This document shows positions 9,374 to 19,501 of a stretch of 64,000 bases of DNA, piece after piece (the stretch's first letter is position 1; each line of letters begins with the position of its first letter). The notes under the pieces are model-generated. The model was not told where the DNA came from, did no database searches, and saw only the letters and a program-made list of their open reading frames with translations. The stretch covers positions 19,096-83,095 of the forward strand of contig CAZTNC010000015.1 of assembly GCA_964614915.1 (NCBI GenBank). The letters run 5' to 3'. This DNA is from an uncultured Thiotrichales bacterium (GTDB lineage Bacteria; Pseudomonadota; Gammaproteobacteria; UBA4575). The position numbers and the translations under genes are program-made.

Positions 9374-9817
9374 ATGACCGAAATCACGCTAGAAATCGCC
9401 AATACAATCATTGATGCTGCCCTCCGGGAAGGCCGCACGCGCAAGCTGGCACCACTTACAGTTGCCGTACTGGATGCCGGCGGCCACCTCAAGGCTTTGT
9501 CGCGGGCGGATGGCGCAAGCTTCATGCGCCCGATGATGGCCGTAGCAAAGGCCTGGGGCGCGATCGGTGTCGGTGTCTCATCACGCACACTGGGCGAGAT
9601 GGGCGAGCAGCGGCCAATGTTCATGAATGCCCTGGTCCAGGTTGCTGACCAGCGGCTTTTACCCGTGCCCGGAGGCGTGCTCGTCCGAGATTCCGACGAT
9701 GCGATCATTGGTGCAGTCGGCATCTCCGGCGATGTGTCCGACCAGGACGAATCTTGTGCCGTTGCGGGAATCAGTGAGGCCGGGTTGCAGGCGGATACGG
9801 GAAAGCCCCAGGAGTAA
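9374..9817 (+). CDS. GlcG/HbpS-like haem-binding protein (DUF336)
   Basis: 147 aa, ...GAVGISGD... C-terminal motif typical of DUF336/GlcG; last core gene before the AT-rich island. Confidence 0.7.
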   Translation: MTEITLEIANTIIDAALREGRTRKLAPLTVAVLDAGGHLKALSRADGASFMRPMMAVAKAWGAIGVGVSSRTLGEMGEQRPMFMNALVQVADQRLLPVPGGVLVRDSDDAIIGAVGISGDVSDQDESCAVAGISEAGLQADTGKPQE

Positions 9818-9823
9818 ATTTTG
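9815..9823. repeat. left copy of a 9-bp direct repeat TAAATTTTG flanking the AT-rich island (right copy at 13695-13703)
   Basis: exact 9-mer at both GC-content transitions; an inverted TTATGTAG/CTACATAA lies just inside each copy. Confidence 0.3.
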
Positions 9824-9848
9824 GGAATTATGTAGCTAAGTTGACAAA

Positions 9849-10034
9849 ATGAATAAAGCAGAAAAGACAAAAAGAGAATATTTTGCTGAACTTAGTAAAA
9901 ATTATAAAAAACGTAAAGAGTATGAATGTGAATTAAATAATGCCATAACCATGGTTCATAAAACATTTGCTGTTTTAGATAAATTACTTAACGACTACTA
10001 CAAACTGTTTCCTGAACGGAAAAAGCAGAAATAA
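9849..10034 (+). CDS. hypothetical Lys-rich small protein (61 aa)
   Basis: ORF in very AT-rich DNA, where long ORFs are unlikely by chance; no convincing RBS. Confidence 0.2.
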   Translation: MNKAEKTKREYFAELSKNYKKRKEYECELNNAITMVHKTFAVLDKLLNDYYKLFPERKKQK

Positions 10035-10212
10035 GTTTTTCCATTTTCTCTAATTTCTCTATCAACGTTTCCGAAGCGTTTTCTAACTTTACGATTTCTT
10101 TTCTTAGTGATTTTGATAGATGGTGACCAGCTATTGTTTCTGTTTTAACTAATGTCTCTATCAGAACTAGCATCATTATTTCCAGGGCTTCGTAATTCCC
10201 ATTATTTCCCAT
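9988..10212 (-). CDS. hypothetical coiled-coil small protein (74 aa)
   Basis: GAGGGG Shine-Dalgarno 8 nt upstream of the ATG; heptad-like Lys/Glu-rich sequence; overlaps the 3' end of ORF 9849-10034 convergently. Confidence 0.35.
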   Translation of the reverse strand: MGNNGNYEALEIMMLVLIETLVKTETIAGHHLSKSLRKEIVKLENASETLIEKLEKMEKLISAFSVQETVCSSR

Positions 10213-10250
10213 CTTTATCCCCTCATTTTAGTTTTAAATAAATACGAAAC

Positions 10251-10279
10251 TTGACAAAATAATATTATTTCACTAATAT
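10251..10279 (+). promoter_or_regulatory. sigma70-type promoter TTGACA-N17-TAATAT upstream of the IS1595 transposase
   Basis: consensus -35 and near-consensus -10 with 17-bp spacer, about 80 bp upstream of the transposase ATG. Confidence 0.5.
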
Positions 10280-10358
10280 AGTGTTATGTTAATTCGTAAT
10301 GTAACACCTTACAGTGCAGGTTAAAAACAAACCAGTCGTCCTGAGTCTCTACGAAATC

Positions 10359-11246
10359 ATGGATCGATACAAGACCAAGGAAGACGCCATTTGCTACTTT
10401 GAAAAAATGCGATGGGGTGACAAGCCCGTATGCGTCAAGTGTGGTTGTACAGGCAGGATTACGGCACAGAAGAAAGTCGGTGATTACTGGTGTGGAGACT
10501 GCCGGAGTTACTTTAATGCTTTCACTGGCACTCCACTAGAACGCAACAAGGTAGACCCTCGCAAGTGGATTTACGCCACCTACACCCTGATGACTTCACG
10601 GAAAGGTATTTCCAGCCTTCAACTGTCCAAAGAAATTGGTGTGCAGCAGCGCACTGCCTGGTACATGCTGCACCGGCTGCGTCTGGCCTGCGGCGACAAT
10701 ATGGAAGCCTTGCACGGTGAAGTTGAAATGGATGCAACATACATCGGTGGACTTGAAAGGAACAAGCACGCTGACAAAAGGTTGAAGTCCGGCAGAGGTA
10801 CGGTAGGTAAACAGGCTGTGCTCGGTATGAAACAGCGCGAAGGACGGGTAAAGGCCATATCGGTTGAGGGTGAAGACAAGGCAACTATTCACAGTGCTGT
10901 TCTTGCAAATATTGAAGTGGGTACGACTATCTATACAGATGATCATAGGGGCTACAAGAATATCGGCGGGACTATATACAAACATCAAACCGTCAAGCAT
11001 TCGGCAAAGGAATACGTGAATGGCATGGCTCATACCAACAGCGTCGAGTCTGTATGGTCAGTGCTCAAACGCGGCTTCAATGGTGTCTATCACAATTGGA
11101 GCAAAAAGCATTGCCAACAGTACGTGAACGAATTTACCTTTCGGCTGAATGAAGGGAATTGTGATCGAGACACCCAGGACCGGCTCGACGATCTGTTCAA
11201 GGCGATGTCGGGTAAAACGATAACTTATAGAGCGCTGACTTCTTGA
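10359..11246 (+). CDS. IS1595 family transposase (N-terminal zinc ribbon plus DDE_Tnp_IS1595)
   Basis: CVKCGC...CGDC zinc ribbon; IYTDDHRGY, HTNSVESVWSVLKR and YVNEFTFRLN motifs characteristic of IS1595/ISXO2-like transposases; ORF open from 10314, ATG at 10359. Confidence 0.85.
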   Translation: MDRYKTKEDAICYFEKMRWGDKPVCVKCGCTGRITAQKKVGDYWCGDCRSYFNAFTGTPLERNKVDPRKWIYATYTLMTSRKGISSLQLSKEIGVQQRTAWYMLHRLRLACGDNMEALHGEVEMDATYIGGLERNKHADKRLKSGRGTVGKQAVLGMKQREGRVKAISVEGEDKATIHSAVLANIEVGTTIYTDDHRGYKNIGGTIYKHQTVKHSAKEYVNGMAHTNSVESVWSVLKRGFNGVYHNWSKKHCQQYVNEFTFRLNEGNCDRDTQDRLDDLFKAMSGKTITYRALTS

Positions 11247-11279
11247 GCGTAGTCTTGCTGTTATTCAAACAGCGTTCAG

Positions 11280-11813
11280 TTAAGCGGAATTTTCTGCACG
11301 TTTAAAATCTTTTGCAGAAAACCGGTACCAGTTGCGGAACAAATGTTGCCACCACTTTACTGGTTGAAAATCATCTGAGCCAAACCCAAGCGCCTGTGAT
11401 GCGGCATTTCCGCACTCAGCATTAAGAGCGTGATAGATAGCAGGTTCATCCTCATAAACGCTGAGTATTTCTTGACGCCACTTATGTATTTCCTTTTCAT
11501 CAGCTTTATACACGTCGATCATCTTGGCAATTTCATAAAAACGCTTCGCAAGAAATTCATGGTTACGTGCCCTGTCTGCCAGGCCCCACACCATGTTGAT
11601 AGCCCCTATTGTAGTGGGTATAAGCATGATAAACATGGCAACTGCTTTGTTGGCTTCTGCAAGCTGCCACACGGCATAACTGCCTGACAGCAATACTGCT
11701 ACCATCAGCCACCTGTGCCATTTATCAAAAAAAGATCGTCGTGCAGTGTGGTAGCGAGCGCTACGGTCACAATCATGCAGAAAATCTTTTGCTTCCTGTT
11801 GCAGATCAGTCAT
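11280..11813 (-). CDS. two-TM membrane protein with about 100-aa cytoplasmic C-terminal domain (SLATT-like architecture)
   Basis: 177 aa; TM helices at about aa 35-51 and 57-78; start ATG overlaps the stop of the upstream peptide gene (ATGACTGA). Confidence 0.55.
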   Translation of the reverse strand: MTDLQQEAKDFLHDCDRSARYHTARRSFFDKWHRWLMVAVLLSGSYAVWQLAEANKAVAMFIMLIPTTIGAINMVWGLADRARNHEFLAKRFYEIAKMIDVYKADEKEIHKWRQEILSVYEDEPAIYHALNAECGNAASQALGFGSDDFQPVKWWQHLFRNWYRFSAKDFKRAENSA

Positions 11814-11949
11814 TTTTTCTCGGCGGTGTTACATCTCTTGGAGGTTCGTTAGAGTGAGTCTTATCTGGCGAATCATGTGCAGGTATATCTTTAGGTGGCG
11901 GCGGCGGCGGTTGGCGAACAGGTTGCGGCTCTTTTCTATCCTTTGACAT
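11806..11949 (-). CDS. proline-rich small protein (46 aa, MSKDRKEPQPVRQPPPPPPKD...)
   Basis: not in the supplied ORF track (<60 aa); AAGGAG Shine-Dalgarno 6 nt upstream of the ATG at 11949; stop overlaps the start of the downstream 2-TM gene. Confidence 0.35.
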   Translation of the reverse strand: MSKDRKEPQPVRQPPPPPPKDIPAHDSPDKTHSNEPPRDVTPPRKND

Positions 11950-11994
11950 GGTCATCTCCTTAAAAATACTAAGTTTAGTTTAACATTTTTTTAA

Positions 11995-12996
11995 TTATTC
12001 ATGAGGTAGAGGACAATCTATGCAGCCTCCTGGAGGTGGTGTAGCACCTGAATTGGAATTCTTGAAAGCGGCAGTTGACCCATAAAAAGCCCCGACAAAA
12101 CTTACAGGGCCTACATTGGTTATTGTCGCAGAACCTCCATGGGTTCCTGCCACCATGCGAGGGTTGCCATCAGAATCATCTTCAGACGAGAATCGACCAC
12201 CCCAACGTCCTCCCATATTGGCAACACCCAGTTGCGGATTCTGAAGCACCACCTCGCTTCCAGTAAACGAGCCGTCAGCATTGATGCTGGCGTCAATTAG
12301 CTGGAGTACGAATGGAGTCAGCACGTACCGGCCTCCCTGTAGCAATTCTATGTTCGTAATATCCCCGTCAACGGTCATGGCCCCGGTACTGAAGTCTGCT
12401 TCAAGAAACAGGCTGCCCCGGTACTCTCCCGTAGCCGAACCAAGTACGTAGGTGCCACCTGTAATCCCGTTGTAATCGACTTCACCTACGTTTACGGGAA
12501 TTGTCGGCTGTGTAGACGTTGAAAATTCTTCGCCGTCCACAAAAGCCCCGATTTCCACGCTTCCACCCGATGATCTGTAGGACCAGTACCCACCCGCCAG
12601 GTAGTCCGTAGCATCACCCGAATTCCAGTCCACCAACACACCGGCTCTAACGTTGCTTCCAACCAAAGTACCTGTCTGGGACATTCTTCCCGTAACTGAA
12701 CTGGTTTCAGGATTCTGGATGATGGAAGAACCGCTCGTATTCAATGTAAATGAACTACCTCCTGCACGGGCTACCGTGACTTCAAAACTTGATCCGGGTG
12801 TGAAACGTGTACTGATGGTGTCCGAAGCTACTGCCTGGATAATACTTGTCCCAAACACCGGTGGTGACATGGCGGCTCGTTCTGCGGCATCACTGTAGGA
12901 TACGGGTGGGTTGACAGGGGCAGGATCGCTTCCGCCTCCACCTCCGCCTCCACAGGCGGACAGCAGCACTAAGGCTGCACATAGAATTCTTCGCAT
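11995..12996 (-). CDS. surface-lipoprotein-like protein with fHbp/TbpB-type C-terminal beta-barrel signature
   Basis: lipobox LLSAC followed by a GGGGGGGS tether; G-YRG-LF-EADF-TG-M-VDGDI resembles the G.YRG..F...A.F.DF...G.I motif of neisserial fHbp/TbpB barrels; ATG at 12996 with a GAGG Shine-Dalgarno (ORF open from GTG 13035). Confidence 0.6.
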   Translation of the reverse strand: MRRILCAALVLLSACGGGGGGGSDPAPVNPPVSYSDAAERAAMSPPVFGTSIIQAVASDTISTRFTPGSSFEVTVARAGGSSFTLNTSGSSIIQNPETSSVTGRMSQTGTLVGSNVRAGVLVDWNSGDATDYLAGGYWSYRSSGGSVEIGAFVDGEEFSTSTQPTIPVNVGEVDYNGITGGTYVLGSATGEYRGSLFLEADFSTGAMTVDGDITNIELLQGGRYVLTPFVLQLIDASINADGSFTGSEVVLQNPQLGVANMGGRWGGRFSSEDDSDGNPRMVAGTHGGSATITNVGPVSFVGAFYGSTAAFKNSNSGATPPPGGCIDCPLPHE

Positions 12997-13182
12997 GGTT
13001 GCCTCGCGTAAAGTGACGTTTTTTACTTCCGACACAAGGGTGCCGGGCCATTGTCACTGTACGCAAGTATGCGGATAGTTCCTGCCTATTCGCCGTGTGT
13101 CAGATAGCTACTTCTGACACATATATTCGGCTGTTGTATTCAGTAGGTAACCCGACTCTGGATTACTCACGCACAGTGACAG

Positions 13183-13191
13183 TGTTATAAT
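13183..13191 (+). promoter_or_regulatory. extended -10 promoter TGTTATAAT for the small two-gene cassette
   Basis: TGnTATAAT about 30 bp upstream of the AAGGA Shine-Dalgarno and ATG at 13223. Confidence 0.45.
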
Positions 13192-13222
13192 AGGCTTACA
13201 GATTAATCTGCACAAGGACCAA

Positions 13223-13386
13223 TGGATAAGATTCAGGAAAAGATAGACAAGGTTGCTAAAACCTTGTTAAACATGCCTGCTCCACAAGAGCACAAACGCA
13301 CGATTCCCACCAAGAAAGACCTTGAACGCAAGTTTGTCATGCGGGTTGACCGCAAAGGCAAACCATCTGTACGTGAGATCAAATGA
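13223..13386 (+). CDS. hypothetical hydrophilic small protein (54 aa)
   Basis: not in the ORF track (<60 aa); good Shine-Dalgarno; stop overlaps the start of the next gene (ATGA). Confidence 0.35.
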
Positions 13387-13580
13387 TGATTGTAGAATTT
13401 TTAACAATGATCACGGCTGCTGCTGTGATTGTAGGGATGCTTGTAAAATTATATTTTAAAATTGATCGATTAGAAAAAAGACTAGATAAGCTAGGTATTA
13501 CCAAAGTCACATACAGTAAATACCCTGCAGACATTGATCATATGGAAGACGGAGAAATCTGGGTGCAATACGAAAAATAG
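13383..13580 (+). CDS. hypothetical small membrane protein (65 aa, one N-terminal TM helix)
   Basis: translationally coupled to the ORF at 13223-13386. Confidence 0.4.
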   Translation: MMIVEFLTMITAAAVIVGMLVKLYFKIDRLEKRLDKLGITKVTYSKYPADIDHMEDGEIWVQYEK

Positions 13581-13694
13581 CGTTTAAGTTTAAATATTAT
13601 TTTTCACGTATCTTCTGCTTGAATCTCATCATATAAGAACTAAAACTTGGCTAAGGTATCCCCTGTACCCTGCCAAGTTAACTACATAAGTCCC

Positions 13695-13703
13695 TAAATT
13701 TTG
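13695..13703. repeat. right copy of the 9-bp direct repeat TAAATTTTG flanking the AT-rich island
   Basis: exact match to 9815-9823; followed by the hairpin CCGGGC-N9-GCCCGG. Confidence 0.3.
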
Positions 13704-13776
13704 TACCGGGCGGTGATGCTGCCCGGAATCGAACACCAGCAAGATTTTCGTTCCACCGTGTATTTTGGGAGAGACT

Positions 13777-14961
13777 ATGATTAAGCCTCACGGAGCCGAT
13801 GCCTTAAAGCCTTTGTACGTCAGTGATGAGGTGCAGCGCAAGCAGTTCGTACAGGAGGCGGAACACCTGCCCTCCGTACTGTTGAACTCGGCAGCTTCCT
13901 GCAACGTCGTAATGCTCGGAGCCGGCTACTTCACGCCACTTTCCGGGTTCATGAATATCCAGGACTCGATCTCGGTCGCCAATACCATGCATACATGTGA
14001 CGGGCTGTTCTGGCCCGTCCCGATCATGAACCTTGTACAGGACGCATCTTCCATAGAACCCGGCATGCGCATTGCGCTGAAAGACCCGAATATGGATGGG
14101 TTCCCCGTGATTGCGATCCAGGAGGTTGAAGCCGTTGAAGAACTCGGTGAAGACCAGATGGCCACCATCGTGGAGAAAACGTACCGCACCACGGATCAGG
14201 ACCACCCTGGTGTGGCAACCATCATGGCATCGGGGAGGACAGTGATCTCAGGCCCTATCCAGGTGCTCAATTACAGCTATTTCCAGGATGAGTTCCCGGA
14301 AACGTTCCGTACCGCAGTCGAAATCCGTGATGAAATCACCGAGCGAGGCTGGCATACCGTGGTGGGATTCCAGACCCGCAATCCGATGCATCGTGCCCAT
14401 GAAGAGCTGTGCAAGATGGCGCAGCAGGCCACGGGCGCGGACGGTATCCTGGTCCACATGCTGCTGGGGAAGCTGAAACCCGGAGACATCCCAGCCCCCG
14501 TTCGGGATGCCGCGATTCGCAAAATGGTCGAGCTCTATTTCCCGCCCAACAGCGTCATGATTACAGGCTACGGATTCGACATGCTGTATGCCGGCCCGCG
14601 TGAAGCTGTCCTGCATGCGGTCTTTCGCCAGAACTGTGGCTGTACGCATTTCATCATCGGCCGCGACCATGCCGGAGTGGGCGACTACTACGGGGCGTTT
14701 GATGCCCAGGAAATTTTCGATGAGGAAGTGCCCCCGGACGCGCTGGAGATCGAGATCTTTCGTGCCGACCACACGGCCTATTCCAAAAAGCTGAACCAGG
14801 TCGTCATGATGCGTGATGCACCTGACCACCAAAAAGAGGACTTTGTTCTGTTGTCCGGCACGAAGGTCCGTGCCATGCTGGCGGCCGGCGAATCCCTGCC
14901 GAAAGAATTTGCCAGACCGGAAGTCGCCGAAATCCTGATGGATTTCTACCAGAGCGCATAA
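13777..14961 (+). CDS. sat: sulfate adenylyltransferase (ATP sulfurylase, dissimilatory-type Sat)
   Basis: QTRN and GRDHAG motifs; full-length match to homo-oligomeric ATP sulfurylases of sulfur oxidisers; ATG at 13777 after GGGAGAG. Confidence 0.9.
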   Translation: MIKPHGADALKPLYVSDEVQRKQFVQEAEHLPSVLLNSAASCNVVMLGAGYFTPLSGFMNIQDSISVANTMHTCDGLFWPVPIMNLVQDASSIEPGMRIALKDPNMDGFPVIAIQEVEAVEELGEDQMATIVEKTYRTTDQDHPGVATIMASGRTVISGPIQVLNYSYFQDEFPETFRTAVEIRDEITERGWHTVVGFQTRNPMHRAHEELCKMAQQATGADGILVHMLLGKLKPGDIPAPVRDAAIRKMVELYFPPNSVMITGYGFDMLYAGPREAVLHAVFRQNCGCTHFIIGRDHAGVGDYYGAFDAQEIFDEEVPPDALEIEIFRADHTAYSKKLNQVVMMRDAPDHQKEDFVLLSGTKVRAMLAAGESLPKEFARPEVAEILMDFYQSA

Positions 14962-19009: not shown

Positions 19010-19501
19010 ATGGAACAGGCAACACCATTGCCGATTGACATTGACATCGGCATCCCCGAACTCCAGCGCAAGGAAATTGCAACCGGCCTGAGCCGGCTGC
19101 TTGCGGATACCTATACGCTGTACCTGAAAACCCACAACTACCACTGGAATGTAACCGGGCCCATGTTCACTACCCTGCATACCATGTTTGAGCAACAATA
19201 CCAGGAGCTCGCTCTGGCCGTGGACGAAATCGCTGAGCGAATCCGGGCGCTGGGTATTTTTGCACCCGGTTCCTACAGCAGGTTCAAGGAACTCACCCAG
19301 ATCGATGAGGAAACACGTGTGCCGAGTGCCAAGGAGATGATCCACCAGCTGGTCCTGGGGCAGGAAGCCGTGGTGCGCACCGCTCGGGAGATCTTTCCGG
19401 TCATTGATGCGGCAAACGACGAACCCACTGCCGATTTGGTTACAAATCGCATGCAGACACACGAGAAAACCGCCTGGATGCTGAGAAGTTTGCTGCAATA
19501 A
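19010..19501 (+). CDS. dps: DNA starvation/stationary-phase protection protein Dps
   Basis: ferritin-like HNYHWNVTG...LHTMFEQ ferroxidase-site motifs. Confidence 0.9.

Follow-up and report, generated by a model that had tools for sequence, protein, structure and literature searches.

A gene pair for a SLATT-like membrane protein and a proline-rich micro-protein carried by an IS1595-family transposon and other mobile elements

The RexA/RexB proteins of phage lambda and SieB of phage P22 are membrane systems for prophage exclusion or abortive infection, which are expressed from the immunity region. SLATT proteins consist of a cytoplasmic N-terminal helix, a tight transmembrane (TM) hairpin, and subsequent cytoplasmic helices, and they occur as stand-alone proteins of ~170–200 amino acids (aa) on phages and other mobile elements. 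SLATT genes often overlap the stop or start codon of the partner gene (DRT10 preprint 10.64898/2026.04.29.721553). Insertion sequences (ISs) of the IS1595 family have a single gene for a Zn-finger/DDE transposase and an 8-bp target duplication (PMC8101967). Here, we describe a two-gene cassette at positions 11280–11949 of a 64,000-nucleotide (nt) stretch of DNA from an uncultured Thiotrichales bacterium (GenBank assembly GCA_964614915.1, contig CAZTNC010000015.1, forward-strand positions 19,096–83,095; the whole stretch is hereafter called the window). One gene encodes a 177-aa protein with two TM helices (2-TM protein), which is supported as a distant relative of the SLATT superfamily, and the other encodes a Pro-rich micro-protein. 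The pair lies inside an intact IS1595-family transposon, and related pairs are present on phages, prophages, a plasmid, and chromosomes.

The cassette resembles the SLATT systems in helix order, protein size, mobile carriers, and the overlap between the two genes. Unlike in those systems, the 2-TM protein scores far below the curated SLATT thresholds and has an extra C-terminal helical region with an invariant N136 and a near-invariant E123-P124 pair, and the partner is a Pro-rich micro-protein of 31–66 aa instead of a nucleotide cyclase, SLOG, TIR, or reverse transcriptase protein. The closest described counterparts are gp19 of BcepMu and gp48-gp49 of phiE255, which belong to the same 2-TM family and are likewise preceded by a small open reading frame (ORF) overlapping the 2-TM start. 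These are carried by Mu-like phages and not by an insertion sequence, and their cassette is placed after the genes for a cI-like repressor and a membrane protein and before the lysis cassette. The motif of their micro-protein is VVNTLPPPPP, whereas that in the window is PPRDVTPP. Our literature search found no function for BcepMu gp19. The repressor-adjacent position (in TC7 and BcepMu), the combination of a small membrane protein with a cytoplasmic partner, and a plausible depolarizing activity are reminiscent of RexA/RexB and SieB. However, no sequence or fold relationship with them was detected, and the likeness is one of function and gene position only.

Both genes of the cassette are on the minus strand of the window, with the following features.

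11280–11813, minus strand: 2-TM gene; 177-aa product beginning with MTDLQQEAKDF; PHROG 11791 (BcepMu gp19 family)
11806–11949, minus strand: Pro-rich micro-protein gene; hydrophilic 47-aa product with 14 Pro residues and the C-terminal motif PPRDVTPP
11956–11961, minus strand: Shine-Dalgarno sequence AAGGAG, read from the sequence, 6 nt 5′ of the ATG at 11949

Two ATG codons, at 11955 and 11949, are candidate starts of the micro-protein ORF (micro-ORF), which ends at 11806. The AAGGAG sequence (11961 to 11956) directly touches the ATG at 11955 and is 6 nt away from that at 11949. Because of this spacing, the likely micro-protein starts at 11949 and has 47 aa, MSKDRKEPQPVRQPPPPPPKD...PPRDVTPPRKND, with the full likely sequence MSKDRKEPQPVRQPPPPPPKDIPAHDSPDKTHSNEPPRDVTPPRKND. 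An earlier reading of this DNA made from the letters alone (the sequence-only reading) had counted 46 aa, which has to be revised accordingly; the near-perfect Shine-Dalgarno sequence it had pointed out is indeed present. As it had also noted, the TGA stop codon of the micro-ORF (11808–11806) overlaps the ATG of the 2-TM gene (11813–11811), and together they form ATGACTGA (11813 to 11806). The own Shine-Dalgarno sequence of the 2-TM gene is weak. No RNA family was detected by an Rfam scan of positions 9500–14000.

Hydropathy analysis of the 2-TM protein placed TM1 at approximately residues 35–53 and TM2 at approximately residues 57–77, connected by an AEANKA loop. Because Arg/Lys-rich segments flank the TM pair on both sides, the positive-inside analysis indicates a hairpin with both termini in the cytoplasm (N-in/C-in). 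The AlphaFold2 (AF2) model, which was built with 22 homologues and has a predicted local distance difference test score (pLDDT) of 83, consists of helices 3–51, 56–98, 106–121, and 128–141, the former two of which form the hairpin. Thus, all three approaches agree with the two closely spaced TM helices that had been recognized from the sequence alone. In both the hydropathy profile and the AF2 model, the two TM helices lie between cytoplasmic N- and C-terminal helices, as in SLATT proteins. The protein is therefore predicted to have a SLATT-type fold, in which a cytoplasmic basic N-terminal helix is followed by a TM hairpin and cytoplasmic helices.

The 2-TM protein matched phrog_11791 with an E value of 1.3e-32, residues 2–166 being aligned to profile positions 4–169 of 173. 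A tblastn comparison with BcepMu gp19 gave an E value of 1e-23 with 33% identity over 99% of the query, and phiE255 gp49 gave the same E value (1e-23). These matches identify the protein, at the sequence level, as a member of PHROG 11791, a group labeled 'unknown function' that includes BcepMu gp19, phiE255 gp49, and TC7_041 of Pseudomonas phage TC7. A database clustered at 90% identity contained 21 close relatives. A profile search of 1.84 billion representatives, in which the family was counted as clusters at 50% identity, yielded 1,948 clusters when the E-value limit was 1e-3 and 1,123 when it was 1e-10; the lengths range from 101 to 288 aa among the 150 of the 1,948 clusters listed. Tyr21, His22, His85, and Asn136 (Y21, H22, H85, and N136) are invariant throughout the family, and R25, L88, E123, and P124 are nearly so. 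The 21 close homologues (175–185 aa) end at one common place, ...RFSAKDFP..., as does the protein of the window. Therefore, its C-terminus is of full length, in disagreement with the truncation considered in the sequence-only reading.

The relationship of this family to SLATT proteins was detected at a distance. A Pfam scan of the 2-TM protein gave no significant match, including none to SLATT, and the Pfam SLATT models matched one of 69 diverse relatives. The NCBIfam model SLATT_4 aligned with residues 7–116 of the window protein at 20.5 bits (E = 3.4e-4), far below its curated cut-off of 55 bits. Among the 69 relatives, SLATT_4 matched 32 (best E value, 9.2e-8) and SLATT_1 matched 19, and none reached the curated cut-off. 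To control for biases arising from composition and TM segments, 36 reversed sequences were also scanned. SLATT_4 matched none of them and SLATT_1 matched two, which indicates that the SLATT_4 signal depends on residue order and that SLATT_1 is less specific. PADLOC gave weak matches to the '2TM' effector models of the cyclic oligonucleotide-based antiphage signaling system (CBASS), and some family members also matched the RT-SLATT models. In a Foldseek search of the AF2 model against the predicted viral structures of BFVD, 10 of the 26 best matches, and most of those bearing a functional name, were annotated as SLATT, with a probability of ~1.0 and TM-scores of 0.5–0.6; most of the other matches in the top 26 were unnamed. 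A sequence-profile search of the PDB with the 2-TM family found nothing. Neither in the window nor in the related loci examined was a nucleotide-signal or nucleic-acid partner (SMODS, SLOG, TIR, or reverse transcriptase) found within 6–8 kb. Taken together, these results support the 2-TM protein as a distant relative of the SLATT superfamily but not as a member of SLATT_1–6, because its scores are below the curated threshold and the typical genomic association is absent. The SLATT-like label proposed from the sequence alone thus stands at the superfamily level, by virtue of the order-specific SLATT_4 signal, PADLOC, and Foldseek, but not at the level of the curated hidden Markov model cut-off.

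With one exception, each distinct locus checked has a hydrophilic ORF of 31–66 aa that runs up to or into the 2-TM start. In the close clade, these loci are the window and L001–L006, L019, L021, L025, and L026 (loci other than the window are designated by L numbers); the others are from Bauldia (L012), a Rhizobium plasmid (L023), TC7 (L018), BcepMu and phiE255 (L016 and L017), and BcepMu-like prophages of E. coli, Hafnia, and Klebsiella (L007, L008, and L022). The exception is L025, which retains a C-terminal remnant of the micro-ORF with no ATG. Because the two-ORF layout recurs in every independent homologous locus examined except L025, it exceeds what chance would produce. The Pro content of the micro-proteins is 26–47% outside the BcepMu-like group and 6–15% within it. 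An alignment of the close clade, which covers Gammaproteobacteria, Alphaproteobacteria, and Acidobacteria, revealed a PPRD[VAE]xPP motif, and the corresponding motifs are RDVP in Bauldia, PVPPPPRRDP in TC7, and VVNTLPPPPP and N[TS]FAPP in the BcepMu-like group. In most loci, the end of the micro-ORF either overlaps the beginning of the 2-TM gene (ATGA, ATGnnTGA, or 11–26 nt) or is at most 2 nt away from it; outside this majority are L002 and L021, with gaps of 57 and 9 nt, respectively, and Bauldia L012. In two loci from metagenome-assembled genomes of Vicinamibacterales (Acidobacteria), L005 (~8001) and L006 (~7983), the junction is CTGA instead of ATGA. There is no canonical start at this position, and the next in-frame TTG is 10 codons downstream. 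Termination–reinitiation is therefore the best explanation for these two loci, and their sequences suggest that it may be obligatory there, at a non-canonical start.

Between BcepMu and phiE255, the substitutions at the first, second, and third codon positions number 3/1/7 in the micro-ORF and 8/7/45 in the 2-TM gene, a bias that is consistent with a protein-coding micro-ORF. The view of the sequence-only reading that the micro-protein is real and translationally coupled is thus upheld by its recurrence across loci, the motif alignment, and the codon-position bias. Nevertheless, the micro-ORF is annotated in phiE255 only (gp48) and is otherwise mostly missing or mis-called. In BcepMu (L016, 3832–4020; NC_005882, ~10494–10682), an unannotated 62-aa ORF, MTNPKNNSNSDSTNKGVPTRDS...VVNTLPPPPPLPTRDNSNGNDQS, corresponds to phiE255 gp48 and shares 20 nt with the start of gp19. 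Many database entries of the 2-TM family (205–290 aa; e.g., P0006–P0014, P0019, and P0022–P0033) have N-terminal extensions of 40–120 aa rich in Thr, Ala, Glu, Gly, and Ser. The extensions that we checked on the DNA (L003, 7983–8708; L012, 8001–8675; and TC7_041 of L018) are the Pro-codon region of the micro-ORF read in the wrong frame. In L020 (~638–815), a contig with 3x coverage, a frameshift in a T6/C7 homopolymer region appears to divide the micro-ORF. This is probably an assembly indel, and removal of one T restores a single ORF containing EPPRDYAPP.

The cassette is present on various carriers, the first of which are three bounded IS1595-family transposons (in the window, L002, and L020). 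BcepMu-like transposable phages and prophages of Burkholderia, E. coli, Hafnia, and Klebsiella also have it, in the order cI-like repressor, membrane protein, micro-ORF, gp19, gp20, holin, SLT endolysin, and Rz. In Pseudomonas phage TC7, the cassette directly follows the 'repressor protein C' gene, and in a lambdoid prophage it lies between recombination genes and an S24 repressor gene. Placement in the immunity region, as in these phages, suggests that the cassette is expressed in lysogens. On a conjugative Rhizobium plasmid (L023, 4436–5434), the cassette is near a caspase-family gene, and in Bauldia it is a lone two-gene insertion between housekeeping genes. Other cassette regions hold integrases, IS fragments, DUF499, and DUF3800. 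DUF499 and DUF3800 beside the cassette in L021 (175–5209) and the caspase-family gene on the Rhizobium plasmid are genes typical of defense islands. A scan of the genome_contigs collection yielded three loci, and scans of the viral_contigs and metagenome_contigs collections with alignment A1 gave no confirmed relatives. No third conserved gene was found beside the cassette across the loci examined. As no cyclase, SLOG, TIR, or reverse transcriptase gene is linked to it either, the cassette is self-contained and spread by many kinds of mobile elements.

In the window, the carrier is an IS1595-family element with the following features outside the cassette.

9815–9822: left copy of the target-site duplication, TAAATTTT; 8/8 identical to 13695–13702; includes the TAA stop codon of a GlcG-like gene
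9823–9846, plus strand: left terminal inverted repeat, GGGAATTATGTAGCTAAGTTGACA; 20/24 identical to the right arm
9849–10212: two overlapping small ORFs of 61 aa (9849–10034, plus strand) and 74 aa (9988–10212, minus strand); 29–34% GC; cargo
10251–10279, plus strand: putative sigma-70-like promoter, TTGACA-17-TAATAT; 10/12 consensus positions; 5′ of the transposase gene
10314–11246, plus strand: IS1595-family transposase of 310 aa; N-terminal Zn-ribbon and full-length DDE domain
11995–13035, minus strand: predicted lipoprotein of 346 aa; LLSACGGGGGGGS lipobox followed by a poly-Gly linker
13033–13580, plus strand: right arm, with the upstream region of the lipoprotein gene and small ORFs of 54 aa (13222–13386) and 65 aa with one TM helix (13383–13580)
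13671–13694, minus strand: right terminal inverted repeat; reverse complement, GGGACTTATGTAGTTAACTTGGCA; nearly identical to the right repeat of L024
13695–13702: right copy of the target-site duplication, TAAATTTT, directly outside the inverted repeat

The transposase matched PF12762 (DDE_Tnp_IS1595; E = 9.8e-43) over profile positions 2–153 of 153, PF12760 (Zn_ribbon_IS1595; E = 1.1e-6), and NCBIfam NF033547 (transpos_IS1595; E = 7.4e-55). The local-alignment score of the inverted-repeat pair is 37, as compared with 22.3 ± 2.5 in shuffled sequences, none of 200 of which reached 37. The repeats open with GGGAnTTAT and are located ~1.4 and ~1.9 kb from the two sides of the 2-TM gene. The element (9823–13694) coincides exactly with an islet of low GC content (0.29–0.50 inside versus ~0.57 in the flanks), and the left repeat marks the fall from ~0.6 to ~0.3. 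Its insertion site is intergenic, between the GlcG-like gene and a sulfate adenylyltransferase gene, and the window contains one copy. Within the element, the genes for the lipoprotein, the 47-aa micro-protein, and the 177-aa 2-TM protein form an operon-like run on the minus strand. Because the repeats and a perfect 8-bp duplication surround the operon, the whole operon is inside an intact element, and 9823–13694 is one 3,872-bp IS1595-family transposon with passenger genes. The Zn-ribbon and DDE_Tnp_IS1595 domains, the single transposase gene, the 8-bp duplication, and the GG-initial repeats are shared with other IS1595 elements that have passengers. We take ISNwi1+ and ISPna2+ to be the IS1595 subgroups with passengers in ISfinder, and the ends of ISNwi1 are presumably 'ggnnatTAT'. 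The window is a chromosomal region of proteobacterial type, with genes such as uvrC, rne, ftsK, and glcD.

Two other cassette-bearing elements were delimited. The L002 element, found by a motif-guided scan, is 5,275 bp long with repeats identical at 24/24 positions and the duplication ATTTAAAA. The L020 element is 2,250 bp long with the duplication TAATTTTT and encloses the micro-ORF, the 2-TM gene, a DUF2513 gene, and the transposase gene; its repeats form a 25-nt alignment with 23/25 identical positions, which holds the ~22-nt terminal repeat and scores 40 versus 18.2 ± 2.2 (0/300 shuffles). In both elements, the peptide and 2-TM genes are accompanied by a convergent transposase gene. No pair of repeats and duplication was found in L019, L001, L021, or L025. 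An IS1595 transposase gene adjoins the cassette in 5 of the 13 loci examined in the closest clade (the window, L002, L019, L020, and L025). The 2-TM gene and the convergent transposase gene are 30 bp apart in L002, whereas the passenger genes between them are a 65-aa ORF and a P63C gene in L019 and the DUF2513 gene in L020; in L025, a divergent transposase gene is located 122 bp upstream. The transposase gene shares 4 nt with the downstream passenger, which is DUF2513 (winged-helix) in L020 (1403–2586) and P63C in L019 (4929–6808), and both of these families are phage-associated. The transposases adjoining the cassette are 36–55% identical to each other and the accompanying 2-TM proteins 62–73%, with no correlation between the two. 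Simple co-descent of transposase and cassette was therefore rejected in favor of recurrent capture or exchange.

A sibling element in another genome, at another site (L024, 5927–11377; ENA ERZ25067264), has the same right repeat, a right arm 82% identical to 13033–13365 of the window, and a transposase gene 77–78% identical, which is interrupted by an IS3-family insertion. Immediately left of the element is a SocA_Panacea gene. Its cargo comprises a 465-aa lipoprotein, a 100-aa Cys-rich secreted protein, and a 78-aa ORF, and it does not carry the cassette. Because this sibling IS bears other cargo, the cassette is a swappable passenger. The left-arm segment at 9849–10212 is also absent from L024, and its ORFs have no match in Pfam or NCBIfam. 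The cassette-bearing IS1595 elements thus range from 2.25 to 5.3 kb and hold extra genes, and no description of a SLATT-like cassette with a lipoprotein as IS1595 cargo was found in the literature.

We infer that mobile elements carry a self-contained membrane-effector module that provides exclusion, abortive infection, or addiction. Our preferred reading, held tentatively and at slightly less than an even chance, is that the 2-TM protein perturbs membranes as a SLATT-like effector in superinfection exclusion or abortive infection, both its synthesis and its activity being tied to the micro-protein translated with it. In such a system, the cytoplasmic, probably disordered micro-protein would be made first, and synthesis of the 2-TM protein would need ribosomes that finish the micro-ORF by termination–reinitiation. 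The 2-TM protein would then oligomerize in the inner membrane, which it could permeabilize or depolarize, and the micro-protein may restrain or gate it through the conserved PPRD-x-PP / xAPP C-terminal motif. Carriage would be of advantage to the mobile elements or the host, the most likely advantage being that incoming phages are met by superinfection exclusion or abortive infection. Several points weigh against this reading. All family members are 'hypothetical', with no functional annotation or experiment for any of them, and toxicity, pore formation, and binding by the micro-protein are all putative. The SLATT match is far under the curated cut-off (20.5 versus 55 bits), and no nucleotide-signaling or reverse-transcriptase partner occurs in any locus, unlike in the described SLATT systems. 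The neighbors in the window are non-defense genes, the cassette of Bauldia sits among housekeeping genes, and that of BcepMu-like phages is located just 5′ of the lysis genes, where a lysis-related role is possible. In addition, the transposase (36–55%) and 2-TM (62–73%) identities are unlinked, indicating recurrent capture or exchange. An unlikely alternative is a toxin–antitoxin-like addiction module, in which the 2-TM protein would be a membrane toxin and the labile, disordered micro-protein its antitoxin, so that the pair would stabilize the IS, prophage, or plasmid rather than defend the host. The compact layout, in which the small gene comes first and translation is coupled, the many carriers, including a 2.25-kb IS and plasmids, and the absence of a sensor enzyme from every locus examined would all suit such a module. 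Nevertheless, neither product resembles known toxin or antitoxin families, the place after a prophage repressor gene in TC7 and BcepMu is typical of exclusion genes expressed in lysogens, and post-segregational killing would give chromosomal IS copies little gain. It is distinctly unlikely that the pair has a membrane or envelope role outside conflict, for example as a lipoprotein partner or insertion factor, or is a stress-response membrane protein carried by the IS by chance. A lipoprotein gene is directly upstream of the cassette in the window and directly downstream in L001, the sibling element L024 carries one too, and the neighbors in Bauldia are housekeeping genes. However, only these two cassette loci have a lipoprotein neighbor, the lipoproteins are unrelated beyond the signal peptide, the phage and prophage loci have no such partner, and L024 has a lipoprotein but no cassette.

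The remaining readings concern the micro-ORF, lysis, and the adjoining transposase gene. The micro-ORF could mainly be a regulatory leader, in which a Pro-Pro pause relieved by elongation factor P (EF-P) over the 2-TM start gates effector synthesis and the peptide itself has no role. We consider this improbable, although it is compatible with our preferred reading of an exclusion or abortive-infection effector. A PP or PPP stretch occurs 1–8 codons before the stop in 12/12 loci counted outside the BcepMu-like group, but terminal PP is expected fairly often in peptides with ~30% Pro, and the PP tract of the BcepMu-like group is 13–18 codons from the stop. The frequent stop–start overlaps, the replacement of ATGA by CTGA in L005 and L006, and the weak Shine-Dalgarno sequence of the 2-TM gene fit a leader, whereas the 57-nt gap in L002 does not. 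Moreover, conservation across phyla extends to non-Pro residues (PPRDV, and N[TS]FAPP in the phages of enterobacteria and Burkholderia), and the substitution pattern is that of a protein under purifying selection. A related proposal, to which we give a similarly small chance, regards the cassette as a minimal system of abortive infection or exclusion with translation status as the sensed signal, the PP(P) pause in the micro-ORF setting the amount of a SLATT-like pore protein. Ribosomes would pause at the terminal PP(P) directly over the overlapping 2-TM start, the CTG start of some lineages would be reachable by reinitiation only, and EF-P availability or phage-induced changes in translation would set the pore-protein level. 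Its compactness would allow hitch-hiking on 2.25-kb IS1595 derivatives and on transposable and lambdoid phages. The sequence-only reading had offered a holin-like protein as an alternative, and a component of phage lysis timing (a holin, antiholin, or lysis regulator) that strayed onto other elements is very improbable. The N-in/C-in 2-TM hairpin has the topology of class II holins, and in BcepMu, phiE255, and enterobacterial prophages, the lysis genes (holin, SLT endolysin, and Rz) lie 1–3 genes 3′ of the cassette. However, those phages have a separately annotated holin (Holin_2-3) nearby, the window element has no endolysin gene, and no lysis genes are linked to the cassette in TC7, L003, the IS elements, the plasmid, or the chromosomal loci. 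The ~135 residues of structured cytoplasmic helices are also not found in small holins. Finally, the sequence-only reading had proposed that an IS1595 element inserted beside the 2-TM gene, that its terminal repeat overlaps the 3′ end of the gene, and that the operon was recently disrupted or is regulated by the IS. The coordinates agree with the 33-bp distance between the stops of the two convergent genes on which this was based, but the proposal is almost certainly wrong. A search for repeats near the transposase gene, taken as a transposase-only unit or as a unit of transposase, 2-TM, and peptide genes, found none above the shuffled sequences in the window and L002; the ends in the window emerged once the search took in the whole low-GC islet. 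The true repeats (9823–9846 and 13671–13694) and the perfect duplication enclose the operon as a passenger, the same convergent layout is found inside the bounded L002 and L020 elements, and the 2-TM C-terminus is complete in comparison with the 21 homologues.

The 2-TM family is large (~1,100–1,900 clusters) and without assigned function, and it is distributed over phages, plasmids, insertion sequences, and chromosomes of Proteobacteria and Acidobacteria. Its partner gene is almost never annotated, and treating the pair as one cassette corrects these annotations. Our literature search found nothing on the Pro-rich partner, the reinitiation coupling, or the recurrent IS1595 carriage, and these three properties appear to be new. 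The cassette is a small, testable candidate for an exclusion, abortive-infection, or addiction module. A SLATT-like effector paired with a micro-protein instead of a signaling enzyme bears on how SLATT effectors are controlled, and IS1595-family elements of 2–5 kb that carry and exchange cargo widen the range of mobile elements that spread conflict-type genes.

The lipoprotein gene of the window ends 45 nt 5′ of the micro-protein gene in the same direction, and this spacer has no promoter-like or terminator-like site on the minus strand. The lipoprotein gene and the cassette are thus probably co-transcribed in the window. The lipoprotein weakly matched slam_lipo (Slam-dependent surface lipoprotein; E = 0.002). 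Lipoprotein genes are present on or beside the elements at 11995–13035 (minus strand) in the window, 8535–9452 in L001, and 9049–10446 in L024. The signal peptide, lipobox, and poly-Gly linker of the three proteins are nearly identical, LL[ST][AG]CGGGGGGG[ST], whereas their mature domains are unrelated (BLASTP E > 1). Judged from these sequences, they look like variable surface-lipoprotein cargo with a conserved export cassette. Since the signal peptide and the poly-Gly linker are all that the three lipoproteins share, we did not retain the idea that lipoprotein and cassette are functionally linked in a conserved way. Just 5′ of the lipoprotein start, at 13049–13184, there is a 21-nt inverted repeat with 81% complementarity, whose arms are separated by 94 nt. 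Conservation of this region extends to L024, and the repeat could be a putative regulatory site for the cargo operon.

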